Positions 2 through 62,205 of a stretch of 64,000 nt of DNA are shown in pieces (the first letter of the stretch is position 1; every line of letters starts with the position of its first letter). This stretch comes from an uncultured Candidatus Saccharibacteria bacterium (lineage in GTDB: Bacteria > Patescibacteriota > Minisyncoccia > Phycocordibacterales > UBA9973). Below the pieces are notes generated by a model. It did no database searches and was not told the origin of the DNA. It worked only from the letters and a program-made list of their open reading frames with translations. The position numbers and the translations under genes are program-made. The stretch covers positions 10,751 through 74,750 of the forward strand of contig CAYHBT010000001.1 in the NCBI GenBank assembly GCA_964354935.1. Reading direction: 5' to 3'.

Positions 2-1861
2 TTCGCTTTTGCCAAAAAATTCAATATTCCTTTACATGAAGTTGTTGAACCGCTTTTTGTTGATACTAGTAGTATTAGTGGAGTTCAAAATGATAAGCCT
101 TTTGTTGAACGAGAAGTTATTTCGGCTATCGTCAAACATTGGTCCGAAGACAAATATATAGGCCTTAGATGGAAAAAGGTTAATTGGGGAACTTTTATTA
201 CTGGCGGAGTAGAAGATGGTCAGACACCCGAAGAAGCGGCGCGAAGAGAAATAGAGGAGGAAACAGGTTACTTTAATTTCAAATCAGTTAAGGTCTTAGG
301 ACGTTCTTATAGTAAATTTTATCATGTACCGAAAAAGCAAAATCGTTTTGCGCATTTTACTAATTTTTATTTTGAATTAAAAAATGGAGAACAGAAAGTA
401 ATTTCGGAAGAAGAAAAAGGCAATCATGACATAGTCTGGCTTAAACCCGAAGAAATAGAAAATTTTATTACAGCCGAAGGCCAGAGACGCGATTGGAATT
501 TAGTGCAGGGAACAGAAAAAGCCATCGCAAAAAATGGAATTTTACTAGAACCATTAGAATTTAAAGGCAGGGAATGGGGTGAAGTGCGGGAAGATGTTAT
601 TAATTTTATTGTCAAAAATGGCTGGGGAGAAAGAAAAGTAAACTACAAACTCCGCGACTGGGTTTTTTCGAGGCAGAGGTATTGGGGCGAGCCTATACCG
701 GTGGTGCATTGCGCTAAGTGTGGCGTAGTCCCTGTTCCGGAGAAAGATTTGCCGGTGGAATTGCCGAAAGTAAAAAATTATCAGCCGACGGATAGCGGAG
801 AATCGCCGCTCGCCAATATTACAAAGTGGGTAAATACGAAATGTCCAAAGTGTAAAGGGCCTGCGAAGAGGGAAACAGACACGATGCCAAACTGGGCGGG
901 AAGTTCTTGGTATTTTTTGAGATATGTTGATGCTAAAAACAATAAAGAGTTTGCAAGCAAGAAAAATTTGGAATATTTCACGCCAGTCGATTGGTACAAC
1001 GGCGGAATGGAGCATACGACTTTGCATTTATTGTATTCTCGTTTCTGGCATAAATTTTTATATGATTTGAAAGTCGTGCCTACCAGCGAACCATATATGA
1101 AGCGTACTTCGCAAGGAATGATTTTAGGCGAAGGGGGGGTAAAAATGTCGAAATCTCTCGGGAATGTGATCAATCCGGACGATATTGTGAAAACCTACGG
1201 CGCAGACACTCTTCGATTGTATGAAATGTTTATGGGCCCGTTTGATCAATCAGTGGCATGGTCGTCGGAATCTATGATTGGACCGAGGAGGTTTTTGGAA
1301 AAAGTTTGGAGAATTGGATTTTCTATATCCTCGCCAAAGAAGAAAAATTCTTCGGCTTTCCTCCACCCTTCGGGCGGAACCTTCCGCCAGCAGAATTCTT
1401 CTTCTTTGGCTCGTCTCTTAAACAAAACCATCAAAAAAGTTTCAGAAGATATTGAAGGTATGAATTTCAACACGGCAATTTCCAGCATGATGATATTGGC
1501 GAACGAAATGGAAAAGACAGAAAATATTTCTATTGAAGATTATAAAATATTTTTAAAGCTTCTCTCACCATTTGCGCCACATATCTCGGAAGAGTTGTGG
1601 TCAATACTGGGTAATAAAAAGTCTATAAGTTTGGAATCTTGGCCGGCATATGATGTTTCTAAAATAAAAGACGATGAAATAAAAATTGTAATACAAATAA
1701 ACGGCAAACTTCGCGCAGAAATTATAATTCAAGCGGAAGACTCGGAAGAAAAAATCAAAGAAAAAGCTCTTGCAAACGAGTCTATTTCAAAGCATATCAC
1801 AGGTAAAAATATCAAAAAGGTAATATATGTAAAAAACCGACTTATCAACATTGTGCTGTAG
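2..1861 (+). CDS. leuS: leucyl-tRNA synthetase, C-terminal portion (5' end truncated by the window). Reading frame 2 is open from position 2. A Nudix-like domain lies upstream of the RDW/YWG catalytic motif.
   Basis: Carries GERKVNYKLRDWVFSRQRYWGEPIP and KMSKS motifs and a class I LeuRS C-terminal anticodon-binding region. The frame is continuous upstream of the first Met, through to the listed ORF 503..1861. Confidence 0.9.
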   Translation, partial: FAFAKKFNIPLHEVVEPLFVDTSSISGVQNDKPFVEREVISAIVKHWSEDKYIGLRWKKVNWGTFITGGVEDGQTPEEAARREIEEETGYFNFKSVKVLGRSYSKFYHVPKKQNRFAHFTNFYFELKNGEQKVISEEEKGNHDIVWLKPEEIENFITAEGQRRDWNLVQGTEKAIAKNGILLEPLEFKGREWGEVREDVINFIVKNGWGERKVNYKLRDWVFSRQRYWGEPIPVVHCAKCGVVPVPEKDLPVELPKVKNYQPTDSGESPLANITKWVNTKCPKCKGPAKRETDTMPNWAGSSWYFLRYVDAKNNKEFASKKNLEYFTPVDWYNGGMEHTTLHLLYSRFWHKFLYDLKVVPTSEPYMKRTSQGMILGEGGVKMSKSLGNVINPDDIVKTYGADTLRLYEMFMGPFDQSVAWSSESMIGPRRFLEKVWRIGFSISSPKKKNSSAFLHPSGGTFRQQNSSSLARLLNKTIKKVSEDIEGMNFNTAISSMMILANEMEKTENISIEDYKIFLKLLSPFAPHISEELWSILGNKKSISLESWPAYDVSKIKDDEIKIVIQINGKLRAEIIIQAEDSEEKIKEKALANESISKHITGKNIKKVIYVKNRLINIVL

Positions 1862-9430: not shown

Positions 9431-9472
9431 AGTGAGAGCTTTAGGCTCTAGGGAGAGTCTAAAGCTCTCACT
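9431..9472 (+). terminator. perfect 14-bp inverted repeat hairpin after lepA (AGTGAGAGCTTTAG...CTAAAGCTCTCACT). Belongs to the cagagcctaaRgc palindrome family.
   Basis: Inverted repeat read directly from the sequence. Downstream of it is an AT-rich stretch. Confidence 0.5.
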
Positions 9473-13049: not shown

Positions 13050-13105
13050 GTTTTCGCAAGAACTTTTCGCAAGAACCGTTTTCGCAAGAACCGTTCTTGC
13101 GAAAG
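13050..13105. repeat. REP cluster: three tandem ttttcgcaagaac units ending in the perfect palindrome ttcgcaagaaccgttcttgcgaa
   Basis: Palindrome read directly from the sequence. It is repeated at 13805..13830. Confidence 0.8.
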
Positions 13106-13130
13106 TCTGGATGTTTAGTATAATTAAAGA

Positions 13131-13799
13131 ATGTTTCGTAAAGATCCATTTCTAACTGGTGAATACTACCACTTGTACAACCGTGGCATAGACAAGCGGG
13201 TAATTTTTAAACTAAAAAGAGATTACGAAAGATTTATGATGCTTCTTTATCTTGCAAATTCAAATGACTCTTTCCGACTTGATGATATTTTAAATAAAGA
13301 ACATAAGACATTTAGTGAAGTTTTAATATTAGAGAGAGGTGAACCGCTCGTTTCCATTGGCGCATGGTGCTTGATGACAAATCATTTTCATCTTTTAATT
13401 AGGCAAGAAATTGATGGTGGGATTACTAAATTTATGAGAAAGTTGGGTGTAGGATATTCAATGTTTTTTAATATAAAATATCAGAGAACAGGATCTCTTT
13501 TTGGTGGACTATTTAAATCAAAATTAATTGGAACTGATGATAATTACATGAGACAGTTGCTTGGATATATTCACATCAATCCTCTTGAGATAGAATTTCC
13601 CGAATGGAAAAATCAGATTAAAAAATCTTCAGTTGATATGAAAAAATTTCTTGAATCTTATAGATATTCTAGTTACCAAGATTATCTTGGCAAAGATAGA
13701 GTTGAGAAAAATATAATCAACCCTAAAGCTTTCCCTGAGTATTTTGAGAATTCAAAAAAGTTTGAGGATTTTGTTGATAATTATTTTGTTGAAATTTAA
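13131..13799 (+). CDS. REP-associated tyrosine transposase (RAYT; IS200-like Y1 HUH transposase) copy 1
   Basis: GEYYHLYNRG, HUH motif NHFHLL, and catalytic-Tyr region YIHINPLE. Confidence 0.8.
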   Translation: MFRKDPFLTGEYYHLYNRGIDKRVIFKLKRDYERFMMLLYLANSNDSFRLDDILNKEHKTFSEVLILERGEPLVSIGAWCLMTNHFHLLIRQEIDGGITKFMRKLGVGYSMFFNIKYQRTGSLFGGLFKSKLIGTDDNYMRQLLGYIHINPLEIEFPEWKNQIKKSSVDMKKFLESYRYSSYQDYLGKDRVEKNIINPKAFPEYFENSKKFEDFVDNYFVEI

Positions 13800-13804
13800 C
13801 CGAC

Positions 13805-13830
13805 TTTCGCAAGAACCGTTCTTGCGAAAG
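13805..13830. repeat. REP palindrome tttcgcaagaaccgttcttgcgaaag (3' flank of RAYT-1)
   Basis: Same palindrome as at 13081..13103. Confidence 0.8.
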
Positions 13831-13836
13831 TTGCTA

Positions 13837-17095: not shown

Positions 17096-17108
17096 ATATT
17101 GTCCAACA

Positions 17109-17133
17109 TTGTCCAACACTCGGTGTTGGACAA
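17109..17133. repeat. REP palindrome ttgtccaacactcggtgttggacaa, with a tandem half-copy just upstream
   Basis: Perfect palindrome. Flanks RAYT-2. Confidence 0.8.
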
Positions 17134-17799
17134 TCAATTTATCCAATCTAATTCTTCCTTTAACAGTTTTGCCGAGCTTGTTTTCACAAATTCATCATAT
17201 TCGTTTTTATTTTTAAACTGTCCGTTGATTATAGCAGTAATCAATAATTCTTCAAATCTATTTTTATTTACACAATCTTGATAGCTTGACCAAGGGTAAA
17301 TATTTTCTTTATTCAGCCACTCTTTTAATTCTCTTGGATTTCTGTGGATATACGCAGACAGGTATAGAAGCTGATTATTATCTTTTACATGTACTGCTTT
17401 GTATGGTCCCTGAAATAGGTGTCCTGATTTGTGGTATTTTGTATTGTAATATTTTGTATAACTATTCAAAACTCTTTGCATATATCTAGCGATACCATTT
17501 TCTTCAACTTCCTTAACGATCAAGTGAAAATGGTTTGACATTAAACAAAAAGAGGTGAGTTCCACGAATCTACCTTTTACGATTTCTTTTTTGGTTTTTA
17601 TATCAATGTCAAACACTGAGTGTTGGACAAATGATTTTATCGAACGACCAATCTGTTGAAAAACAGTAGGGGATTGAAAGTATAAAATTAAAAACAAAAA
17701 TCTTATTCTATCCATGTTGTCGTGAAAGATTAATTGTTTACTCATTCCGCGATTAAAGATATGATAATACTCTCCCGGTGCTATTTTTATATTTCTCAT
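17134..17799 (-). CDS. REP-associated tyrosine transposase (RAYT) copy 2
   Basis: GEYYHIFNRG, MSNHFHLIV and YIHRNPRE motifs. Confidence 0.8.
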   Translation of the reverse strand: MRNIKIAPGEYYHIFNRGMSKQLIFHDNMDRIRFLFLILYFQSPTVFQQIGRSIKSFVQHSVFDIDIKTKKEIVKGRFVELTSFCLMSNHFHLIVKEVEENGIARYMQRVLNSYTKYYNTKYHKSGHLFQGPYKAVHVKDNNQLLYLSAYIHRNPRELKEWLNKENIYPWSSYQDCVNKNRFEELLITAIINGQFKNKNEYDEFVKTSSAKLLKEELDWIN

Positions 17800-17826
17800 A
17801 TTACTATTATATAACTTTATTTCTAA

Positions 17827-17851
17827 CTGTCCAACACTCGGTGTCGGACAG
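17827..17851. repeat. REP palindrome ctgtccaacactcggtgtcggacag (other flank of RAYT-2)
   Basis: Near-perfect palindrome. Same family as the one at 17109. Confidence 0.75.
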
Positions 17852-17994
17852 TTGCAGGGTTAAAGGAGAATGTGATAAAATTAAAATATGTCAAAACAAG
17901 ATGAATTTCCAAAGTCACAAGGAGCTGATAATACAAAAGAAGGTATAATGGCTAGAAAGGCAAGATTGTTGCAAGAGCAGAGAGAGAGAGAAGA

Positions 17995-19058: not shown

Positions 19059-19130
19059 GCCGAGGTAGCTCAGTAGTAGAGCTCTCCCCTGAAGAGGGAT
19101 AGGTCGGCAGTGCGATTCTGCCCCTCGGCA
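19059..19130 (+). tRNA. tRNA-Phe(GAA)
   Basis: Sequence gccgaggtagctcagtagtagagctctcccctGAAgagggataggtcggcagtgcgattctgcccctcggca. The T-loop reads tgcgatt, not the canonical ttcgatt. Confidence 0.75.
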
Positions 19131-19249
19131 CATATTCGGAATAAGTAGAGCCGACGCTGTACTCAGCTCCGACGATTCTGTCGGAGAGCCGACCTTGCGT
19201 CGGCTTTGGTAGTAGCGTTCCCCTCCGACGCTACGGTCGGAGCAGGCTG

Positions 19250-19306
19250 AAGAGGGATAGGTCACCAGTTCGATTCTGGTCCTCGGCACAAAGCACCAAC
19301 ATACAA
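19250..19306 (+). pseudogene. duplicated 3' half of tRNA-Phe (anticodon loop through acceptor end) with a canonical TTCGATT T-loop. It lies 120 nt downstream of the intact gene.
   Basis: ctgaagagggataggtcaccagttcgattctggtcctcggca parallels residues 32-73 of the upstream tRNA-Phe. Confidence 0.6.
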
Positions 19307-23347: not shown

Positions 23348-23845
23348 CTAGAGCGATTTGACTTTAATGTTATTGGTTTTGTCTTTGTCCACTTTTTGCA
23401 GCTTGATGGTGAGCAGGCCGTGTTTTTCGGTCGCTTCGACTTCTTCCGGTTCTATTTCTTGCGGGAGTGAAAGAGTGCGAGAAAATCTTCCCCAATATAA
23501 TTCTTTGGTGAAATAATTTTCATCGTCTATATTGCGATGCTCTTCGCGTTGGCCGATGATGGTGATGATATCGCGAGCGATGGTCAACTCCAAATCTTCC
23601 GGTTTTACTCCGGCTACCATTGTCTGCACGACGATTTCCGTCGGAGTCTGATAGACATCGACTGCCAGCTCTGCTTCTTCATTTTCTTCTTCAATCCAAT
23701 TGTTGTTGGTCTCCTGTTTTTTTTCTTTATCGTTATTTTTACGCGAATGCGCGCCGACTGAAATTCTTTTCGGCTCTTCGTATTCTTCTTTTTCAGCGTG
23801 AGTATTTCCAGTTAGTCTATCCCAAAAACTTCTTTTTTTATCCAT
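23348..23845 (-). CDS. Hsp20/alpha-crystallin small heat-shock protein with a charged N-terminal extension
   Basis: Alpha-crystallin domain spanning VDVYQTPTEIVVQTMVAGVKPEDLELTIA through GLLTIKLQK. Confidence 0.75.
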   Translation of the reverse strand: MDKKRSFWDRLTGNTHAEKEEYEEPKRISVGAHSRKNNDKEKKQETNNNWIEEENEEAELAVDVYQTPTEIVVQTMVAGVKPEDLELTIARDIITIIGQREEHRNIDDENYFTKELYWGRFSRTLSLPQEIEPEEVEATEKHGLLTIKLQKVDKDKTNNIKVKSL

Positions 23846-23920
23846 CCCATTATAAATTAAATTAATAATCTTTGTTTATATATCCCGTTCGATTAAATTT
23901 ATAACGGGACAAGTAAATTT

Positions 23921-26800: not shown

Positions 26801-27955
26801 TTAAAGCTTTAAATTACCAGTCGCTTTAATGGATTCCGGCTTGGGGACTTTTTTCTTGTTTTTTATATAATTTAAATATCCGGCGATGCCGATCATTAGA
26901 GAATTGTCTCCTGCTAGACCTTTTGGAGGCAAAAAGAGTTTGGTTTGGCGGCCAACATTTTTCTTCATTTCTCTTTGTAGATGTGTATTGCAAGCTACTC
27001 CGCCGGCGACGATCAAAGTTTTTACGTCGTATTTTTCCATCGCTTTTTTGGTTTTATGGACGAGGCATTCGATTGCTGCGTTTTCAAATTCTAGAGCTAT
27101 CTTAGATTTTATCTCATCTGTTAATTTTCCGTCCGGAGAAATTTTTCTGATTAAATACAAAACAGCGGTTTTTAATCCCGCGAAAGAAAAATCAAAATTT
27201 TTACTGTGGAGCATGGGGCGAGGCAGGGAACAAGAGAAATCAAATCTTGTGGGGTCGCAATTTTTCTGCTGAAAAATTTGCTCCGTCCTCGGCCCGTCGG
27301 CCTGCGTAGACCCCCCAAGATTTATTTCTCTTGTTCCTCTTAACTGCTCCGCCAGTTTTGAAATCTGTGGACCGCCAGGGTAGGGAAGATCGAGCATTCT
27401 AGCGACTTTATCAAAAGCTTCGCCGACGGCATCGTCCAAAGTTTTGCCGATGATTTCGTAATCCATCCATTTTTTCATCAACACCAGTTGCGTGTGTCCG
27501 CCGGAAACCAAAAGTGATAATGCCGGAAATTTTATTTTGGAAACTGCAAATTTTCCTTTATGTTTTCCAAACACAGAAAGTATGTGCCCTTCCATATGGT
27601 TTACCGGAATCAAAGGTGTATTCCATTTTTCCGCCAAATTTTTCGCAAAAGAAATTCCTTCCCAGAGGCACATTTCTAGTCCCGGACCATAAGTGACGGC
27701 GATAGCGTCTACCGGTCTTCCTTTTTTATCCAACTTTGCTTGTTTCAAACTTGCCTCTAAAACAATCGGCAGGTTTTCTGCGTGTTCTCTTTTTGCCAAG
27801 ACAGGATACACTCCGCCGTAAGGAATATGAACATTTATCTGCGAATTTGAATTATTCGCTAAAACTTTAAAAGAAGCATTTGTGATGCCTCCCTTTATCT
27901 CCATTATGCTTATTGCTGTGTCATCACAACTTGTCTCAATACTTAAAAGTTTCAT
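26801..27955 (-). CDS. tsaD: tRNA N6-adenosine threonylcarbamoyltransferase TsaD, with an in-frame insertion of about 38 aa
   Basis: IETSCDDTAISI, HMEGH, VSGGHTQL and YPGGPQIS motifs. The insertion LRGTREIN...RFDFSCS lies before LPRPM. Confidence 0.85.
   Translation of the reverse strand: MKLLSIETSCDDTAISIMEIKGGITNASFKVLANNSNSQINVHIPYGGVYPVLAKREHAENLPIVLEASLKQAKLDKKGRPVDAIAVTYGPGLEMCLWEGISFAKNLAEKWNTPLIPVNHMEGHILSVFGKHKGKFAVSKIKFPALSLLVSGGHTQLVLMKKWMDYEIIGKTLDDAVGEAFDKVARMLDLPYPGGPQISKLAEQLRGTREINLGGSTQADGPRTEQIFQQKNCDPTRFDFSCSLPRPMLHSKNFDFSFAGLKTAVLYLIRKISPDGKLTDEIKSKIALEFENAAIECLVHKTKKAMEKYDVKTLIVAGGVACNTHLQREMKKNVGRQTKLFLPPKGLAGDNSLMIGIAGYLNYIKNKKKVPKPESIKATGNLKL
27227..27337. repeat. hairpin element copy A: about 29-bp inverted-repeat arms flanking a conserved 52-nt core (ttttctgctgaaaaatttgctccgtcctcggcccgtcggcctgcg), inserted in-frame in tsaD
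   Basis: The core is about 90% identical to the one at 52777..52828. The arms differ between copies. Confidence 0.75.
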
Positions 27956-34392: not shown

Positions 34393-35361
34393 CTATTTCG
34401 TATTCAACGCAAGATAAATATCTTCGAGCGCGCGGACGGCATCGCCGGCGGCGATGTTGTTTTGATGATAGAGGACATCGGTGCAATCTCCGGCCGCCCA
34501 GATGCCTTGTGTCTGCGTCTTTTGCGTTTTAGGGTCTATTATTACTCTGCCTATTTCGTCGAGCGGAACGATGTCCTTAGCAAAACCGGTGTTTGGGATT
34601 TGCCCTATCTCCACAAAAATACCGGCGACAAGAAGCTCCACGATTTCTCCGGTCGTTTTATTTTTGTAGATAATGCCTTCCACGAATTTATCGCCTTTCA
34701 CTTCCAAAATGTCGACATTTTTAACCGCTTTCATTTTTGGATTTTTCAAAACTTTTTCTACCGTAATTTCATCGGCGCGGAAAGACTCGCTTCGATGTAA
34801 GAGGGTCACAGACTTGCAGTAAGCGAGGAGCTGGGAAGCGCTTTCAAATCCGGCGTTGCCTCCACCGATCACGACGACGTCTTGCCCTTCAAATAGAGGT
34901 CCGTCACAAGAAGCGCAATAGGTGAGGCCTTTATGTTCCAGTCTGTCCGCATTTTTCGCTTCCAACTTTCTGCGTCCGCTACCTGTCGCTATTAAAATAG
35001 TTTTTGTCTCAAATTCTTGACCGGATTCCGTCTTAACTAAGAAAACAGAGCCTAAAGCTCTGTTGAGTAGAGCTTTAGGCTCTGGAGGCACCATCTTTAC
35101 TGAAATTACTTTTTCACCCTCTTTCACTTCTAATGTTTGTCCGGCTCCGGCGTTTGCAAGCACATGTGTTTTTAAATTTTCCGCGAGTTCATTGCCGGAG
35201 AGGGAAGTCGTCCCGATCCAGTTGTATATTTTTTCAGACACGACAGACTGCCCGCCCCATTCGGCAGTGACGAAAAGGGTCTGTAGTCTTTTGCGAGAAG
35301 CATAGACTGCTGCCGCCGCTCCAGCCGGCCCGCCTCCGATGATTGTTAAATCGTAAATCAT
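34393..35361 (-). CDS. trxB: thioredoxin reductase
   Basis: IIGGGPAGAAAA, CASCDGPLF redox-active disulfide, and a second NAD(P)-binding GGGNAG motif. Contains an in-frame palindrome encoding PEPKALLNRALGS. Confidence 0.9.
   Translation of the reverse strand: MIYDLTIIGGGPAGAAAAVYASRKRLQTLFVTAEWGGQSVVSEKIYNWIGTTSLSGNELAENLKTHVLANAGAGQTLEVKEGEKVISVKMVPPEPKALLNRALGSVFLVKTESGQEFETKTILIATGSGRRKLEAKNADRLEHKGLTYCASCDGPLFEGQDVVVIGGGNAGFESASQLLAYCKSVTLLHRSESFRADEITVEKVLKNPKMKAVKNVDILEVKGDKFVEGIIYKNKTTGEIVELLVAGIFVEIGQIPNTGFAKDIVPLDEIGRVIIDPKTQKTQTQGIWAAGDCTDVLYHQNNIAAGDAVRALEDIYLALNTK
35045..35084. repeat. perfect 16-bp palindrome CAGAGCCTAAAGCTCT..AGAGCTTTAGGCTCTG, in-frame inside trxB
   Basis: Same family as the hairpins at 9431..9472 and 45716..45757. 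Confidence 0.8.
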
Positions 35362-41754: not shown

Positions 41755-41928
41755 GCTCAACCGGATGGCAGATTTATTTGCCGAACTGGTTTCGATCTTG
41801 CCCACGAGCTCGGGAGAGGGTTGCGGGTCGGAGGTGGGGAAATCCCGCAACCACCTTTTTCCCGATGGGTCTGCTCGTGGGCAAAATCTATAATACTTAA
41901 AGTTTTTAATTTGTCAAATTTATGACTA

Positions 41929-41965
41929 TTTTGAACATATGTAAAAGATAGTAAGATAAAAATTA
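41929..41965 (-). promoter_or_regulatory. conserved about 30-nt palindromic motif (cttacTATCTTTTACATATGTTCAAaatagtcataa on the minus strand), copy 3, about 250 nt upstream of mraZ
   Basis: Same motif as at 55882..55919 and 56541..56575. Core ACATATGT palindrome. Confidence 0.5.
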
Positions 41966-42712: not shown

Positions 42713-43613
42713 GATGAGCGTACACAAGACAGTTCTTTTAAATGAAGCTATAGAAGGTTTAAACCTAAAAGCAAAATCAACCGTATTGGACGGCACATTT
42801 GGCGGCGGTGGGCACAGCTTAGAGATTTGTCGCAGATTTCCTGATGTAAAAATAATCGCCCTTGACCAAGACAAGAATGTTTTTGTGCGGGAAGATAAAT
42901 TCAAAAGTTGCAACATTTCTTTTGTTAATGAAAATTTTAGGAATATAGATAAAGTTTTGTCCGCCCAAGGCGGACTCACCTCGGGCGAGGAGAAAATAGA
43001 TGGAATCATTTTTGATTTAGGTTTGAGTTCTGATCAGTTGGAAAGTTCCGGACGAGGATTTTCTTTTATGCGAGATGAGCCGCTCATAATGACGATGAAA
43101 GAAAATCCTCTTCCGGAAGATATCACAGCTTTTGAGGTTGTGAATACTTGGGCAGAGGAAAGTTTGGCTGATATTATTTATGGTTACGGTGAAGAAAAGC
43201 AGGCTCGACCGATTGCTAAATCGATAGTGGAGTTTAGAAAGAAAAGAGAGATTAAAACCACTTTTGATTTAGTCAAAATAATCGAGCAAGCGATTCCTGC
43301 CAGATTTCGAAGGGGAAGAATCCACTGCGCGACCAAAACTTTTCAAGCAATCAGAATCGCGGTGAATGATGAATTGGGCGCATTATCTGAAGGGCTATCC
43401 AAAGGATTTCAGGCATTAAAGGTGGGAGGCAGAATGTCAGTGATAACATTTCATAGTTTGGAGGATCGGATAGTCAAGAGATTTTTTAAAAAACAAGCAG
43501 AAGAAAAGATGGTCTTATTAATAAATAAAAAACCAATCACCGCAAGCATTGAAGAAATTAAAAATAATCCGAGGGCTAGAAGCGCAAAGTTAAGAATTTT
43601 AGAAAAAAAATAA
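42693..43613 (+). CDS. rsmH: 16S rRNA (cytosine1402-N4)-methyltransferase RsmH (likely start MSVHKTV at 42717)
   Basis: VLDGTFGGGGHS SAM-binding motif. Confidence 0.9.
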   Translation: METKRNKMSVHKTVLLNEAIEGLNLKAKSTVLDGTFGGGGHSLEICRRFPDVKIIALDQDKNVFVREDKFKSCNISFVNENFRNIDKVLSAQGGLTSGEEKIDGIIFDLGLSSDQLESSGRGFSFMRDEPLIMTMKENPLPEDITAFEVVNTWAEESLADIIYGYGEEKQARPIAKSIVEFRKKREIKTTFDLVKIIEQAIPARFRRGRIHCATKTFQAIRIAVNDELGALSEGLSKGFQALKVGGRMSVITFHSLEDRIVKRFFKKQAEEKMVLLINKKPITASIEEIKNNPRARSAKLRILEKK

Positions 43614-45715: not shown

Positions 45716-45757
45716 ACAGAGCCTAAGGCACTGGCTAGCCAGTGCCTTAGGCTCTGT
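45716..45757 (+). terminator. perfect 19-bp palindrome ACAGAGCCTAAGGCACTGG..CCAGTGCCTTAGGCTCTGT after ftsI
   Basis: Same family as the palindromes at 9431 and 35045. Confidence 0.5.
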
Positions 45758-52718: not shown

Positions 52719-52746
52719 TTCACTATTTTAACATAGTTTGATATAA

Positions 52747-52858
52747 TACAGAAAGGAAATTTGCTGTTTTTGGGTCACATAATTTTCTGCTGAAAATTTG
52801 TTCCTTCTCGGCCCGTCGGCCTGCGAAAGACCCAAAAACAGCAAATTTCCTTTCTGTA
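52747..52858. repeat. hairpin element copy B: perfect 30-bp inverted-repeat arms (tacagaaaggaaatttgctgtttttgggtc / gacccaaaaacagcaaatttcctttctgta) flanking the conserved 52-nt core. Intergenic.
   Basis: The core matches copy A in tsaD. The arms are unrelated to those of copy A. Confidence 0.8.
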
Positions 52859-52859
52859 T

Positions 52860-55850: not shown

Positions 55851-55881
55851 GAAATTATTGAGACTTCTTTTTGTTTTATTA

Positions 55882-55919
55882 TTTATGACTATCTTTTACA
55901 TATGTTTAAGATGGTCATA
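55882..55919 (+). promoter_or_regulatory. conserved about 30-nt palindromic motif, copy 1 (ttatgacTATCTTTTACATATGTTTAAgatggtcataa), 30 nt upstream of the PaaX-like gene. A TATAAT sits at 55936.
   Basis: Repeat of the motif at 56541 and 41929(rc). Confidence 0.55.
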
Positions 55920-55947
55920 AGGATTATGTTATTGTATAATAGGCAAC

Positions 55948-56502: not shown

Positions 56503-56540
56503 AAATCAAAAGATTAATTAATCTAATTTATTGCGGGTTT

Positions 56541-56575
56541 CTTACTATCTTTTACATATGTTCAACATCGTAAGG
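56541..56575 (+). promoter_or_regulatory. conserved about 30-nt palindromic motif, copy 2 (cttacTATCTTTTACATATGTTCAAcatcgtaagg), 55 nt upstream of gatB
   Basis: Repeat of the motif at 55882 and 41929(rc). Confidence 0.55.
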
Positions 56576-58058: not shown

Positions 58059-58132
58059 GAGTACTTGTCCCGTTAGAAATTCTACGGATATGTTATAATA
58101 ATTAAAATTATTAATTTAAAATTTCTAACGGG

Positions 58133-59005
58133 ATGAAAACATACAAAGAATATATTTTAGAAGCCGACCAAAAGGGAATCGCGATTGGGCATTTTAATGT
58201 TTCAAATTTAGAAGCCTTGCATGGTATTTACAATGCGGCAAAAAAATTAAACTTGCCGATTATTATCGGACTCTCCGAGGGAGAAGAGGCGTTTTTCGGC
58301 AAAGAAGAAGCTGTCGCTGTCGTCAGAGCTTTGCGAACAAGAGATAATTATCCGATATTTTTGAATGCCGATCACCATTATAGTTTTGAAGCGGTCAAGG
58401 CGTCGCTTGACGCGGGTTTTGATTCCGCGGTCATTGATCTGGTCAAGCTTCCGCTCGAAGAAAACATAAGAATCACCAAACAATGCGTCGAATACGCTCG
58501 CGAGCTTTCTAAAAAAGAAAACAGAGAAATTTTGATAGAAGCGGAACTGGGTTTTATCGGTTCTTCTTCAAAAATTTTAGACAAAATTCCTGATGGCGTG
58601 TCGGAAGCGACGATGACTACGCCGGAAGACGCAAAATATTTCGTCGAGGCGACCGGAGTAGATCTGCTCGCGCCTTCTATCGGCAATGTTCACGGAATGG
58701 TTAAAAGCGGAAATCCAAGGCTTCATCCAGAACGAGTCAAAGCTATTCGCGCGGCGACCGGCGTTCCGCTTGTCCTGCACGGCGGGTCTGGTTCGATGGA
58801 CGAAGATTTCATCGCTTGCATCAAAGAAGGGGTGGATATCGTACACATAAATACCGAAATCCGCGTCGCTTTCACTAATACATTGAGGAAATCTTTGGCG
58901 GAAAATCTAGAAGAAATCACTCCTTACAAATATATGCCTGCAAGCATCGATGCGGTCCAAAAAGTTGTCGAATCCCGACTGAAATTATTTAGCGGAATGA
59001 AATAA
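58133..59005 (+). CDS. fba: class II fructose/ketose-bisphosphate aldolase
   Basis: GHFNV, the His-rich metal site LNADHH, and HGGSG. Confidence 0.85.
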   Translation: MKTYKEYILEADQKGIAIGHFNVSNLEALHGIYNAAKKLNLPIIIGLSEGEEAFFGKEEAVAVVRALRTRDNYPIFLNADHHYSFEAVKASLDAGFDSAVIDLVKLPLEENIRITKQCVEYARELSKKENREILIEAELGFIGSSSKILDKIPDGVSEATMTTPEDAKYFVEATGVDLLAPSIGNVHGMVKSGNPRLHPERVKAIRAATGVPLVLHGGSGSMDEDFIACIKEGVDIVHINTEIRVAFTNTLRKSLAENLEEITPYKYMPASIDAVQKVVESRLKLFSGMK

Positions 59006-59009
59006 TTTT

Positions 59010-60860
59010 TTGAAAAACTTGAAATCTGAAATTAAAAAATTTTTTAAGGGAGATGCGGAGGATAGTGAAGCGACCCTCTTTAAGTATTCGCACGATGCGA
59101 GCTTGCTCGAAGTGATGCCCAAGCTCGTGCTTTTTCCGAAAGATTCGGAAGATGTGAAAAATTTGCTTAAATGGGTGAATGCAAATTCCACTCGCTCAGA
59201 CTTACTAGAAAAATACGGCAAACTTTCTGTGACTGCCAGATGCGCGGGGACAGATATGTCGGGTGGAGCCATCGGAGAATCGATTATTTTGGATTTTACT
59301 CGTTATATGAATAAATTAATCGGCGGACCGTTGCCGATTGGCGGTGCGGGATTTAAAAAGAATAAAAATTATCCAGTTACGACTTCATCTATCACCGTGG
59401 AGCCCGGAATGTTTTATCGGGATTTTGAAAAAATAACTTTAGCAAAAGGACTTATCTTGCCCTGCTTCACCGCTTCAAAAAGCTTGAATGCGATGGGTGG
59501 AATGTTTGGCAACAATTCAGCGGGAGAGCGCACTTTGAAATATGGCAAAACCGAAGATTATATTTTGGAGACAAAGGTTGTCCTTGCTGATGGCAGTGAA
59601 TGCGTAGTTAAACCTTTAAACAAAGAAGAATTAAATAAAAAAATCGCACAGAATGATTTCGAAGGAGAAATTTATAAAAAAATATCTCAATTAATCACGC
59701 AAAATGAAGACGAGATAAGACATTCCAAACCAGTCGTTCATAAAAATTCTGCCGGATACTATATTTGGAATGTTGTGGAGGATTCGGCTGTAAAAAATTC
59801 TTCCGCTTTCCTCCACCCTGCGGGCGGAACCTTCCGCGGGGCGAATTCTTCACAGCCGAATCCTGAAGTGCCAAAAAATTCTCTTGATTCCTATTTTGAT
59901 CTAAACAAACTTCTCGTCGGCTCGCAAGGCACTTTAGGTATTGCGACCGAGCTGACTTTCAAAATAATACCGGAAAATAAGTATTCCAAATTAGTAGCGA
60001 TTTTTATGAAAGATCTGGCGCCGCTTGGTCGCTTGGTTGATGAGATTTTAAGATTAAACCCTGAAACACTAGAATCTTACGATGACAAGACGATGAGGTT
60101 GGCGGTACGATTTTTCCCAGATTTTTTGAAAACCAAAGGAATCTTTGGAATGTTGAAATTAATGAGGAATTTTTTGCCTGAATTTTTAATGATGATAAAG
60201 GGCGGTTTTCCAAAGCTGATTCTTTTGGTTGAATTTACCGGAGATGATGAAAAATTCGTCAATCAAAAATGTTTAAAGCTAGCAGATCAAATTAAAAATT
60301 TTAAATTAGAAGTTCACATCACCAAGTCCAACGAAGAGGCGAATAAATATTGGGATATCAGAAGAGAGAGTTTTGCTCTTTTGCGAAAACATGTAAAAGG
60401 AATGCGTACAGCGCCGTTTATTGATGATATCATCGTGCGACCAGAATTTCTACCGAAATTTATTCCCGAGCTGAATACTATTTTAAGCAAATATAATCTA
60501 ACTTACACGCTGGCGGGGCACGCGGGAGATGGCAATTTTCATATTATTCCTCTGATGGATTTCAAACGCCCCGATATTGCTAAAATAATAATGGATCTTT
60601 CTGAGAAAGTTTACGATTTAGTGGCGAAATATCAAGGTTCAATTACCGCCGAACACAATGACGGATTAATTCGCACTCCATATCTTAGTAAAATGTACGA
60701 CGAGATAATGCTTAAAATTTTCGCGCAAATTAAGGAAATTTTTGACTCCAAAAATATTTTAAATACTGGAAAAAAAGTCCCGACAGAAAATTTCGGTGGA
60801 ACGAAAGAATACATTGCTTCGCATATCGCGATGGAACACCAAGCTGGGCACAAAATTTAA
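59010..60860 (+). CDS. FAD-linked oxidase (GlcD/D-lactate dehydrogenase-like, FAD_binding_4 plus C-terminal domain) containing the same in-frame 60-nt repeat found in leuS
   Basis: FAD_binding_4 region (GAGTDMSGGA). C-terminal oxidase domain. Shares the repeat peptide KNSSAFLHPAGGTFR with leuS. Confidence 0.7.
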   Translation: MKNLKSEIKKFFKGDAEDSEATLFKYSHDASLLEVMPKLVLFPKDSEDVKNLLKWVNANSTRSDLLEKYGKLSVTARCAGTDMSGGAIGESIILDFTRYMNKLIGGPLPIGGAGFKKNKNYPVTTSSITVEPGMFYRDFEKITLAKGLILPCFTASKSLNAMGGMFGNNSAGERTLKYGKTEDYILETKVVLADGSECVVKPLNKEELNKKIAQNDFEGEIYKKISQLITQNEDEIRHSKPVVHKNSAGYYIWNVVEDSAVKNSSAFLHPAGGTFRGANSSQPNPEVPKNSLDSYFDLNKLLVGSQGTLGIATELTFKIIPENKYSKLVAIFMKDLAPLGRLVDEILRLNPETLESYDDKTMRLAVRFFPDFLKTKGIFGMLKLMRNFLPEFLMMIKGGFPKLILLVEFTGDDEKFVNQKCLKLADQIKNFKLEVHITKSNEEANKYWDIRRESFALLRKHVKGMRTAPFIDDIIVRPEFLPKFIPELNTILSKYNLTYTLAGHAGDGNFHIIPLMDFKRPDIAKIIMDLSEKVYDLVAKYQGSITAEHNDGLIRTPYLSKMYDEIMLKIFAQIKEIFDSKNILNTGKKVPTENFGGTKEYIASHIAMEHQAGHKI

Positions 60861-60862
60861 AT

Positions 60863-60888
60863 TTGCGTTAGAGGTCTTACCTAGTGCA
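60863..60888. repeat. degenerate REP3 copy (ttgcgttagaggtcttacctagtgca)
   Basis: Resembles the gcgttaggtcttgcctaacgc palindrome. Confidence 0.5.
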
Positions 60889-60900
60889 GAAAAAATTATT

Positions 60901-61419
60901 ATGGATCAACAATTTAAACAAATAAATCAAAATCAGTTTTCAAAAGGTGAGATTGAAAGTACAAGAAAGCTTAAGGAAAGAGCAGATATTAAACAAAATA
61001 TCGTTACAGCTATTCACAACGGAAATGCTGAACAATTAGTGAACGCTATTCAGAAAGCTAGGTATGTATTATTTGATCTTGAACACAAAGACCCCAAAAT
61101 AATGGATAGACAGAATAGATTGCATGTTGATGACGGCCACTGGCAGAGGCAGTTTGAAAAATTTCTTCAGGAAGTAAAAAGGAATGACGAACGCAAAGAT
61201 TATACTAATAATTCAGGCGAGATATATCTAGATGGTGTTTCAAGGATTTTCATTGAAGTTAAAGGAGATGAAGTCAAGCTTATACCTTCTTCGGTGTCTA
61301 AAGCAGAAGTCGCAAATATCTTAGCTCTCATAAATCAAGCCTTTGATTTTTATTACGACAAAGATAAATCAGTAGTTAGCCCAGAACTGAAAGCCTATAT
61401 TGAAACCAACCCAAATTAG
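60901..61419 (+). CDS. hypothetical protein bracketed by REP3 copies (listed ORF 60796..61419; likely start MDQQF at 60901)
   Basis: ORF only; no motifs recognised. Confidence 0.35.
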   Translation: MDQQFKQINQNQFSKGEIESTRKLKERADIKQNIVTAIHNGNAEQLVNAIQKARYVLFDLEHKDPKIMDRQNRLHVDDGHWQRQFEKFLQEVKRNDERKDYTNNSGEIYLDGVSRIFIEVKGDEVKLIPSSVSKAEVANILALINQAFDFYYDKDKSVVSPELKAYIETNPN

Positions 61420-61423
61420 ATTA

Positions 61424-61449
61424 CTGCGTTAGGTCTTGCCTAACGCAAG
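61424..61449. repeat. REP3 palindrome ctgcgttaggtcttgcctaacgcaag
   Basis: Perfect palindrome. The listed RAYT-3 ATG lies inside it. Confidence 0.8.
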
Positions 61450-62143
61450 GGTTATTTGGTATTATATTAATATGTCTATTCGGAAAGTGAACTTAGTTCA
61501 AGGTGAGTATTATCACATTTACAATCGCGGCAATAGTAAACAGAAAATTTTCCACGACAAGGAGGATTATTTAAGATTCATTTCTTTGCTTTATATTTCA
61601 AATACAAGCGAAAGTTTTAATCTTTACGATTTAAGCAGAGATCCTAATTTTAATATTTACGAGTTAGAAAGGAATAATCTTTTGGTTAACATAGGAGCAC
61701 ATTGTCTGATGCCAAATCATTTTCATATATTGATGACCGAAATATCAGAAGGAGGAATAAGTAAATTTATGCAAAAACTAGGTACTGCTTATTCTATGTA
61801 TTACAACACAAAGTACGAAAGAACTGGCGGGTTGTTTGAGGGCAAGTTTAAAGCTCAACACGCAAGTACAGATCGACATTTAAAATATTTATTTTCTTAT
61901 ATACATTTAAATCCAGTAAAGCTTATTCAAAGAGATTGGAAAGAGAAAGGGATTAAAAATAAAAGAGAAGCGATAGACTATCTGATTAAATATACTTATT
62001 CAAGCTACCTAGATTTTATGGGGGACAAGCGAGTTCAAAATAAAATATTAAATTTAGAATCATTCCCAAATTACTTCCCTAACAAGACTTCATTTAACGA
62101 AGAAATTTTTGAGTGGCTTAGCTTTCAGGAAGAATTGCGTTAG
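61436..62143 (+). CDS. REP-associated tyrosine transposase (RAYT) copy 3 (probable start MSIRKVN at 61473)
   Basis: GEYYHIYNRG, MPNHFHILM and YIHLNPVK motifs. Confidence 0.8.
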   Translation: MPNARVIWYYINMSIRKVNLVQGEYYHIYNRGNSKQKIFHDKEDYLRFISLLYISNTSESFNLYDLSRDPNFNIYELERNNLLVNIGAHCLMPNHFHILMTEISEGGISKFMQKLGTAYSMYYNTKYERTGGLFEGKFKAQHASTDRHLKYLFSYIHLNPVKLIQRDWKEKGIKNKREAIDYLIKYTYSSYLDFMGDKRVQNKILNLESFPNYFPNKTSFNEEIFEWLSFQEELR

Positions 62144-62169
62144 GCAAGACCTAACGCAACCTAACGCAA
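62135..62169. repeat. REP3 palindrome ttgcgttaggcaagacctaacgcaa plus a cctaacgcaa half-copy. Overlaps the RAYT-3 stop codon.
   Basis: Perfect palindrome in inverted orientation relative to 61424. Confidence 0.8.
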
Positions 62170-62205
62170 TTTGCATTTTAATTTTTTTTCTGTATACTTG
62201 AATTT

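Follow-up and report, generated by a model that had tools for sequence, protein, structure and literature searches.

The stretch of DNA analyzed in this work, referred to as the window, is a 64-kb segment (64,000 nucleotides) of contig CAYHBT010000001.1 from an uncultured Candidatus Saccharibacteria bacterium, and all positions are counted from its first letter. A 59-nt repeat, here called family A, is found twice in the window, each time within the coding sequence of a gene. The first one is leuS, encoding the leucyl-tRNA synthetase (LeuRS), which is read in frame 2 from the window start to position 1861 and whose product matches the class I tRNA ligase and anticodon-binding domains of Pfam; the second one (59010–60860) encodes a protein assigned by Pfam to FAD_binding_4/FAD-oxidase_C, referred to below as the oxidase. 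The features disclosed at the two sites are the following:

1343–1401, plus strand: leuS copy of the 59-nt repeat (copy 1), 70.6 bits in the nhmmer search against the family profile.
1352–1391, plus strand: asymmetric centre of copy 1, i.e., the spacer that separates its two arms, GC 0.68.
1333–1410, plus strand: whole imperfect palindrome in leuS, with 19-nt arms at 1333–1351 and 1392–1410 (1 mismatch).
59793–59851, plus strand: oxidase copy of the 59-nt repeat (copy 2), 64.5 bits in the nhmmer search, corresponding to oxidase residues ~262–281.
59779–59864, plus strand: whole imperfect palindrome in the oxidase gene, with 22-nt arms at 59779–59800 and 59843–59864 (2 mismatches).

The two copies (AAAAATTCTTCGGCTTTCCTCCACCCTTCGGGCGGAACCTTCCGCCAGCAGAATTCTTC in leuS and AAAAATTCTTCCGCTTTCCTCCACCCTGCGGGCGGAACCTTCCGCGGGGCGAATTCTTC in the oxidase gene) are equal at 53 of 59 bases (90%) and, being translated in the same phase, they give KNSSAFLHPSGGTFRQQNSS and KNSSAFLHPAGGTFRGANSS, respectively. 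A search of the window with a 30-mer spanning the core, allowing up to 3 mismatches, retrieved only two matches, i.e., the two repeat copies, and none of 100 dinucleotide-preserving shuffles was matched; the search with the family profile did not reveal any third family A copy in the window. The asymmetric centres have a GC content of 68% and 71%, versus 38% for the window and for both host genes. A first-pass annotation of this DNA had described segments about 90% identical in leuS and in the FAD-linked oxidase gene, lying in the same phase of two long open frames and GC-rich relative to their hosts, and all this is borne out. Its start for the leuS segment (1343) also stands, while the oxidase segment, given as 59803–59863, had been placed about 10 nt too far to the right. 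The internal palindrome that it reported, ggcggaaccttccgcc, is complete in the leuS copy; in the oxidase copy it is incomplete, and it is not the pairing that covaries. Lastly, the size of the feature had been underestimated, as each copy sits inside a hairpin of 78–86 nt with site-specific arms; these long arms, the in-place inversion of the centre, the fact that more than one core family exists with the same ends and the other hairpin families of the window had escaped that annotation.

Copy 1 opens with an AATT-containing end and a covarying 3-bp stem, which are followed by the GC-rich, asymmetric core; on the other side of the core come the partner of the stem and another AATT-containing end. 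The flanks of the repeat pair within each site (GCCAAAGAAGAA with TTCTTCTTTGGC in leuS, AGGATTCGGCTGT with ACAGCCGAATCCT in the oxidase gene), so that the actual units are 1333–1410, encoding (S)PKKKNSSAFLHPSGGTFRQQNSSSLA, and 59779–59864. The outer arms are complementary inside each site and bear no likeness between the leuS and the oxidase sites. When folded as RNA with 20-nt flanks, the leuS copy (99 nt) reaches −35.1 kcal/mol (z = −5.8) and the oxidase copy −42.9 kcal/mol (z = −4.1); the whole leuS palindrome reaches −21 to −24 kcal/mol as single-stranded DNA (ssDNA). The two strands of the core do not fold equally well: the values are −24.6 for the complementary strand vs. −14.4 kcal/mol for the sense strand as RNA, and −23.5 vs. 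−21.3 as ssDNA, because two A·C mismatches of the sense strand become G·U (G·T) pairs in the complementary one.

The same architecture is shared by all family A copies, which have site-specific arms of 15–26 nt with 0–4 mismatches and form hairpins of 70–92 nt. Proceeding from the outside inward, the site-specific arm is followed by RAAAATTYT(T/C)C, by the covarying 3-bp stem and by (A/T)TT(A/C)CTC; then come CACCC-TNC-GGGCGG and AACCTTCC, and, going outward, the partner triplet, 3 nt, ARAATTYT and the complementary arm. The triplets flanking the core covary (GGC/GCC, CGC/GCG, GAC/GTC, CGG/CCG), and a subfamily in which CCAGCC/GGCTGG replaces CCACCC/GGGCGG at the tip represents a compensatory change in the tip hairpin. 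In a set of 31 copies, the arm positions lying 21–29 nt left of the core are Watson-Crick paired in 81–97% of cases, all four pair types occurring in the outer part, versus only 28–44% in a control with shuffled partners; the pairing falls to background at ~38 nt out. The RAAAATTYT and ARAATTYT blocks are kept on both sides of the core and thus correspond to terminal inverted repeats conserved between copies. A target-site duplication, i.e., a direct repeat formed by the identical AATTCTTC strings that stand 48 nt apart in both window copies, was considered and rejected, as the symmetry across the 31 copies is inverted instead of direct; the direct match is a consequence of AGAATTCT being self-complementary. 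No direct target-site duplication was found around the repeat, whose flanks are inverted repeats.

The distribution of family A was assessed with a 21-base core pattern. The scan of one genome per species (185,579 species) retrieved 26 loci, which, apart from two with a Saccharibacteria label, belong to metagenome-assembled genomes (MAGs) bearing the name Nomurabacteria, Paceibacterota or Minisyncoccia, and the scan of metagenomes yielded 66 further loci (the collected loci are indicated below by L and a number). The same pattern gave no match in viral contigs; hence, no sign of a phage origin was seen. An nhmmer search over all the collected sequence disclosed 88 distinct family A copies, all of them on contigs of Paceibacteria type belonging to the Candidate Phyla Radiation (CPR). 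The hosts, recognized by sequence motif and, for LeuRS and the oxidase only, by Pfam, include LeuRS, the oxidase (2–3 sites), MnmA (2 sites), LigA (2–3 sites), a PheS-like and a Dus-like protein. Further copies, which the first-pass annotation had suggested looking for, therefore exist in many unrelated housekeeping genes of many MAGs. At orthologous sites, and leaving aside the 22-mer required by the search, the identity of the centre is ~70%, a level close to that of the gene DNA around it, and the idea that it is more conserved than the host DNA was dropped; the decay of the centre correlates at most weakly with arm pairing (rho = 0.19, p = 0.08). As a separate observation, ligA, the oxidase gene and an unidentified gene may carry two to three family A copies each, often adjacent and opposite in orientation (L017 2015–2165; L008 5609–5753; L024 3851–3995; L019 5392–5540; L005 5404–6025).

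The family A copies are located mainly within genes, 82 of the 88 (~93%) falling inside open reading frames (ORFs) of at least 150 aa. In the sense orientation, 56 copies all encode K-N-S/F-S-x-L/F-L-H/Q-P-x-G-G-T-F-R/P-x-Q-N-S/F, and in the antisense orientation, 26 copies all encode ..N-S/F-x-G/D-G-R-F-R-P-K/Q-G-G-V-M-x-K-N-S/F; thus, one phase per orientation is used, free of stops, in 82/82 internal copies. This single-phase usage is not trivial, since other phases are open too (in the window copies, all three sense phases and at least two antisense ones). Moreover, if the centre at 1352–1391 is inverted in place, exactly the antisense phase used by the copies elsewhere is obtained, which makes the sense and antisense phases one and the same geometric choice. 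The exceptions comprise two copies that lie shortly upstream of real start codons, a site located at the recA 3′ end and, between genes, one or two copies; the three copies that seemed to use another phase turned out, when checked, to be the two upstream of a real start codon and the one at the recA 3′ end. Diverged copies vary in length by whole codons, and the identity between copies at the nucleotide level includes third codon positions. The phase exclusivity argues for the ribosome reading through the repeat; on this ground, together with the lack of stops, an archaeal-type bulge-helix-bulge intron, an intervening sequence processed by RNase III and ribosome hopping were rejected.

The comparison with orthologues revealed that the sites are occupied in a patchy fashion. 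In LeuRS, the insertion lies between the RFLEKVWRI helix and the LLHKTIKKV helix, and sequences lacking the segment, whose search had also been suggested, are found among the closest homologues (P0011, P0022, P0025, P0026, P0027, P0031); the DNA of three of these empty sites contains no long hairpin, and an AAAAAT..TTCT-like string is present in 3/3. Other LeuRS homologues harbor different cores with the same K-N-S-S ... Q-N-S-S ends, as, for example, KNSSGLTLPGVPGGTHTVQNSS and KNFRNYALGDIGQGTH... The oxidase site was analyzed in 120 orthologues plus the window sequence, sorted by peptide pattern: family A is found in 31 of them, A2 in 20, A3 in 8, A5 in 5, A4 and A6 in 3 each and other inserts in 26, and the site is empty in 25 (e.g., WNVLKNNIFDLNKL). 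In other words, about 80% of the orthologues have some insert, and 25/120 have none. The same MAG may combine both situations: the one from which L100, with its empty oxidase site, derives has family A in ligA and mnmA. The nearest neighbour shares the oxidase state in 11/11 cases at protein identities of at least 95%, in 6/13 at 90–95%, in 12/28 at 85–90% and in 19/55 at 80–85%, the random expectation being 0.19; the state of this site changes fast, within ~5–10% divergence of the host protein. The very same codon position can therefore hold different cores, an inverted core between identical arms or nothing. According to the first-pass annotation, the occurrence of the segment at the same position across distant phyla would have pointed to conserved protein sequence; what is observed is a recurrence only in Paceibacteria-type CPR genomes, patchy and alternating with other cores and with empty sites. 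Judging from the sequences compared, the repeat is not a protein feature conserved across phyla.

A side observation concerns the LeuRS reading frame itself, which contains a NUDIX hydrolase domain upstream of the catalytic core (window 182–466, frame 2; Pfam PF00293, 58 bits, residues 61–155 of the partial protein). PF00293 is also present in many LeuRS homologues of the clade, and in L031 leuS is called in several pieces.

The position of the repeat in the two proteins was inspected on structural models. In the AlphaFold2 model of the oxidase (61-sequence alignment, mean predicted local distance difference test score, pLDDT, of 73), residues 259–292, corresponding to the insert and its arms, are coil with a pLDDT of 25–28. 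In the model of the LeuRS fragment, a helix (211–229) is followed by coil, by residues 237–251 (KNSSAFLHPSGGTFR) with a pLDDT below 50 and by a second helix (254–274); in the alignment with solved LeuRS structures, the best match (3ziu) has a gap at this linker, whose conservation is poor in both. In both hosts, the models place the repeat-encoded segment in a predicted disordered surface or loop position, in agreement with the loop location that had been expected for it. The oxidase model also contains a second low-confidence loop at residues 112–124 (GGPLP..SITVEPG; window 59340–59400). At this site, family A is found in either orientation in L002, L014, L062, L064 and L073, and the window has no recognizable core.

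As for the origin of the arms, in L014 and L073 the right arm of the oxidase copy lies over the conserved (Y/V)FD codons of FDLNKL, and the left arm (DQNKNP and DQKQE) is extra with respect to the empty orthologues. The window copy shows the opposite polarity: its left arm opens with the codons for E-D-S, similar to the way in which the long-form element-free orthologues start (D-S-E / E-D-P), and its right arm (SQPNP) is new and inverted. In leuS, L031 possesses the right flank of the window (TTCTTCTTTGG) without the left-arm codons SPKK. A further case is represented by an inverted repeat of the window that does not contain any foreign core:

43046–43118, plus strand: 24-bp inverted repeat in rsmH (Pfam Methyltransf_5).

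Its left arm consists of the conserved SGRGFSFM codons, its right arm (MKENPLPE) is their reverse complement and its centre is a small native palindrome, ATGAGCcGCTCAT; here, the reverse complement of the GRGFSFM codons stands in for the downstream variable region, which implies that the arm-writing process acts on native sequence as well. In all these cases (L014, L073, the window oxidase copy, leuS and rsmH), the alignments show that one arm corresponds to host sequence and that the other is its inverted copy. Accompanying this, the centre is found inverted in place: L073 and L062 have, at the same oxidase site, identical arms and centres that are exact reverse complements except for 3 differences, and copies of either orientation are found at mnmA, ligA and oxidase sites, too. 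In leuS, the window and L029 have common arms and different cores. Overall, the arms at orthologous sites are 38% identical, versus 71–76% for the flanking gene DNA.

It is known that template switching between short inverted repeats can homogenize arms, lengthen them from 5 to 16 bp and invert spacers in coding DNA (PMC8604942), and that it can create and maintain hairpins (PMC8794818). Since the behaviour of arms and centre in family A matches these documented events, we infer, rather than demonstrate, that template switching writes the arms and flips the centre. A possible sequence of events is the following. The conserved centre, together with the AATT-containing inverted ends, might form an ssDNA hairpin at the replication fork, where the nascent strand would fold back or switch template; one flank would be copied in inverted form, giving rise to the site-specific arms, and the same synthesis would keep the arms identical and sometimes invert the centre in place. 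The length of the repeat preserves the frame at loop positions of housekeeping enzymes, and one phase per orientation is retained, the one encoding a hydrophilic Gly/Pro/Ser-rich peptide (KNSS..LHPSGGTFR..QNSS, or ..GGRFRPKGGVM..). Ribosomal read-through, which would yield peptides such as NSSAFLHPSGGTFR, implies that the protein gains a disordered loop. At the same hot spots, cores come, go and give way to one another within short evolutionary times. A route not requiring any transposase can also be imagined, although it is speculative: slippage between the AGAATTCT ends, which are direct at 48 nt from each other, might delete the core in frame, and template switching at short homologies to another copy could add one. 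Orthologues resembling footprints do exist (KNFS alone; a mini-insert in L031).

On this basis, family A is probably a selfish, GC-rich, palindromic dispersed repeat that is tolerated in the coding loops of Paceibacteria/Nomurabacteria and whose arms are written and whose centre is flipped by template switching. It is one member of a wider set of repeats having common AATT-containing ends and differing cores. The idea that the segment is a mobile or recombining mini-element tolerated in coding sequence, in the manner of the Rickettsia palindromic elements (RPEs), had already been put forward in the first-pass annotation, and it gains support from the dispersal of the repeat, from its absence in close orthologues and from its position in loops. 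A bolder proposal, which we advance only tentatively, is that of a self-perpetuating hairpin-writing system of Paceibacteria coding DNA, in which the core would seed fold-back, arm building and flips, and would be deleted and re-copied through the shared 8–10-bp ends, or else would be copied by Y1 enzymes resembling the transposases associated with repetitive extragenic palindromes (REPs), i.e., REP-associated tyrosine transposases (RAYTs). An insertion by cutting and ligation at restriction-type R^AATTY sites, which would fit the AATT bracketing the core and would allow both orientations, was set aside as unneeded, because inversion mediated by the inverted repeats allows both orientations.

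Several points weigh against the view of a selfish repeat shaped by template switching. No mobilizing enzyme has been identified, and the arms could predate the core, if the latter targets hairpin tips. No pair of filled and empty sites from nearly identical genomes was found, so that no single event of insertion or of arm writing is directly reconstructed. Copies from the same genome are not more similar to each other than copies from different genomes (0.707 vs. 0.710, p = 0.55); thus, the test for concerted evolution within a genome was negative, and there is no support either for it or for recent bursts. The frame exclusivity is put down to a presumed selection on the encoded peptide. In addition, only ~6 of the 88 copies lie outside genes, fewer than expected if two thirds of the genic insertions were lost; this scarcity may derive from the inheritance of hot spots, from a faster decay outside genes or from an unexplained targeting bias.

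Other hairpins, not belonging to family A, are present in the window:

27233–27331, minus strand: family B copy in frame in tsaD, with a two-hairpin core and site-specific arms, adding ~30 residues (REINLGGSTQADGPRTEQIFQQKNCDPTRFD).
52746–52859, no strand assigned: family B copy between divergent genes, with 31-bp perfect site-specific arms.
9431–9472, 45716–45757 and 35046–35084: three copies of a third palindrome, CAGAGCCTAAAGCTCT.

The core of family B has the form AATTTTTCTGCTGAAAAATT..CGGCCCGTCGGCC and is also found, with different arms, in L019 (3923–4014) and L070 (297–412). Two copies of the CAGAGCCTAAAGCTCT palindrome are located directly after genes, resembling terminators, and one is in frame in a gene similar to thioredoxin reductase, where it encodes PPEPKALLNRALGSV. 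Since both family B and this palindrome also occur in frame, in-frame hairpins appear as a general trait of this genome. Some additional structures were observed in the window. The 3′ half of a tRNA-Phe gene (19089–19132) is repeated at 19247–19290 with 89% identity, past two GC-rich hairpins (19166–19243), and only the first tRNA-Phe is called by ARAGORN and Rfam; the half repeat (region 19133–19290) could be what an insertion into the tRNA gene left behind. The palindromic motif ACTATCTTTTACATATGT(A/T) occurs at 41918–41961, 55879–55920 and 56537–56574, in intergenic positions upstream of genes, and may be an operator or promoter element. Two intergenic AT-rich hairpins (58068–58133 and 23845–23909) have the common arm form TCCCGTTA(G/T)AAATT.

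Explanations alternative to a selfish repeat shaped by template switching were also weighed. At the DNA level, family A might be a non-autonomous element similar to REPINs (hairpins of two inverted REP units) or to MITEs (miniature inverted-repeat transposable elements), moved as ssDNA into the tips of pre-existing hairpins by RAYT-like Y1 (HUH) transposases, in which case the arms would be the target. Three genes of this kind, each flanked by palindromes, do exist in the window:

13131–13799, plus strand: RAYT-like Y1 (HUH) transposase gene 1, palindrome at 13080–13106 and 13805–13831.
17134–17799, minus strand: RAYT-like Y1 transposase gene 2, palindromes at 17107–17140 and 17825–17858.
61436–62143, plus strand: RAYT-like Y1 transposase gene 3, palindromes at 61425–61448 and 62135–62158.

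All of them match Pfam Y1_Tnp above the cut-off, contain the HUH (NHFHL/I) and YIHxNP motifs and have each its own perfect palindrome. Gene 3, together with a 207-aa ORF that could not be annotated, makes up a block of 1.3 kb separating the oxidase gene from rplY, which is missing from three related genomes (L099–L101) and is found at the same place in L002. Y1 (HUH) enzymes act on single-stranded hairpins, which makes the RAYT-like enzymes candidates for moving the core. The strand asymmetry of the core is typical of hairpins recognized by HUH enzymes, and a native hairpin without a core is present in rsmH. Yet the palindromes flanking the three genes have no sequence in common with the family A or family B cores and do not recur in the remaining 98 loci, where tblastn detected a homologue in only two cases (L002 and L080); the scores against the NCBIfam model REP_Tyr_transpos (27–39) are well below its cut-off (80); the repeat has neither a GTAG/CGTC tag nor a target duplication; and the empty orthologous sites have no long hairpin. 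The 64-kb window yielded no autonomous insertion sequence (IS) with matching ends; its sole transposase-like genes are the Y1_Tnp ones with their unrelated palindromes. We regard this origin as rather unlikely. Apart from this, the regions of the three genes (13052–13831, 17107–17858 and 60862–62170) contain partial tandem copies of one half-arm next to the palindromes.

At the RNA level, the mRNA hairpin might be excised in the manner of a mini-intron or intervening sequence, or else the ribosome might skip it as in the byp elements of Magnusiomyces mitochondria, the identical AAT TCT codons on both sides acting as take-off and landing sites. The mRNA hairpins have a very high stability (−35 kcal/mol with z = −5.8, and −43 kcal/mol with z = −4.1), identical AATTCTTC strings stand 48 nt apart, and GC clusters bypassed during translation are known (PMC8811140). 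However, with skipping or excision neither the phase nor the presence of stops would matter, whereas the 82 internal copies use one stop-free phase per orientation; diverged copies vary by whole codons; the mRNA sequence is not constant, because both orientations occur; and the search of Rfam 15 with the leuS copy gave no family match at the E-value threshold, but only sub-threshold miRNA-type hairpins. We consider this explanation very improbable. At the protein level, the repeat might represent a functional peptide module (e.g., a binding or modification motif) that several enzymes gained independently of each other and that selection at the protein level has maintained, as the conservation of the peptide in many hosts and the N-x-S motifs at both its ends might suggest. 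This possibility is even more remote: both orientations occur, the same DNA being used reversed at the same sites and encoding two different, unrelated peptides, so that the repeat is not a conserved peptide; furthermore, the conservation is at the nucleotide level, intergenic copies exist, many close orthologues are empty or have other cores and the segment is predicted to be disordered. Lastly, all the data come from metagenome-assembled contigs, and an artefact of assembly or library (adapter, chimera or collapsed repeat) might be invoked; its probability is practically negligible, as the repeat is present in ~90 contigs from many independent studies and assemblers, the copies are always in frame in intact conserved genes, with arms specific to the site, and P0121, encoded by an independent ENA assembly, is an oxidase sequence identical over its 455 aa, insert included.

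The presence of these hairpins bears on the way in which CPR genomes are interpreted. These genomes are tiny, and streamlining is assumed for them; yet, in-frame hairpins are held by at least five genes of the 64-kb window (leuS, the oxidase gene, tsaD, rsmH and trxB). Such repeats account for many lineage-specific insertions in CPR proteins, which calls for caution before a functional motif is read into these insertions and has consequences for alignments, phylogenies and predicted structures. The copies also represent template-switch events replicated by nature in coding DNA (arm writing, homogenization and inversion of a 40-nt spacer), and they raise the question of whether a repeat that dwells in genes is moved by RAYT-like HUH enzymes or by replication alone. 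If the RAYT version were true, this would be the first system of REP/RAYT type located mainly inside genes; if the hairpin-writing reading is correct, in either version, essential enzymes of ultra-small bacteria would be steadily supplied with new disordered loops.

No description of palindromic coding repeats in CPR/Parcubacteria was found in the searchable literature, whose coverage is incomplete; nevertheless, some known systems share part of the features of family A. REPs are likewise short imperfect palindromes in many copies, REPINs are hairpins of two inverted units, and RAYT-like Y1 genes flanked by palindromes are present in the window; however, REPs are extragenic, tagged by GTAG/CGTC and matched by the palindromes flanking their RAYT gene (PMC3116915, PMC3733652), and family A lacks all three traits, no GTAG or CGTC head having been found at either end in the family alignment. 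Being intragenic, tagless and unlike the RAYT-flanking palindromes, family A is not a REP/REPIN. Bacterial MITEs (the 107-bp form of Correia/NEMIS, ERIC, YPAL) resemble it in being small, non-autonomous and provided with terminal inverted repeats and stable stem-loops, some of them being fused to ORFs; they differ in size (~100–170 bp), in their mostly intergenic location, in their TA or other target duplications and in having a related IS (PMC2229807); for family A, no duplication was found, nor a parent IS in the 64-kb window. The template-switch mutations of the Ripley model share with it arm homogenization, lengthening and spacer inversion in coding DNA, behaviours also visible in the core-less hairpin of rsmH (PMC8604942, PMC8794818). 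Template switching is nonetheless a mutational process and not an element, the reported spacers are of a few nt as compared with the 40-nt centre flipped here, and it does not account for how a conserved core reaches new sites.

A closer resemblance is found with two systems. The RPEs (Ogata et al. 2000; PMC2229807) are dispersed palindromic repeats forming a long stem-loop, inserted in frame in conserved genes, missing from orthologues, tolerated at surface or loop positions, without an assigned transposase and hosted by a small, reduced genome. They are 105–146 bp long with conserved ends (PMC2229807), whereas the conserved centre of family A is ~59 nt; unlike RPEs, family A has outer arms differing from site to site, a centre inverted in place and core families with the same ends that replace each other at one codon. 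As its host is CPR Paceibacteria and not Rickettsia, family A is set apart from RPE-1 to RPE-8 by both host and size, and on these grounds it would not be an RPE in the strict sense. The GC clusters of yeast mitochondria (var1), in turn, are short GC-rich palindromes of an AT-rich genome, some of which are optional in-frame inserts; different clusters have the same terminal repeats, and they undergo fast turnover, merging and shuffling (PMC8811140). In contrast to family A, which is ~93% intragenic and for which no target-site duplication was seen, they are mitochondrial, mostly intergenic and accompanied by AG/TAG target-site duplications (PMC8811140). Similarly, the byps of Magnusiomyces are skipped by the ribosome (PMC8811140), whereas the phase exclusivity of family A argues for read-through: the use of any phase and the internal stops expected of a translational bypass element, such as the byps or T4 gene 60, were not observed in any of the 82 internal copies, which is indirect, sequence-based evidence. 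In terms of behaviour, the closest analogues thus appear to be the RPEs and the in-frame GC clusters of yeast mitochondria (PMC2229807, PMC8811140), from which family A is distinguished by its very short conserved unit, its site-specific arms, the in-place inversion of its centre and the interchangeable cores sharing the same ends.

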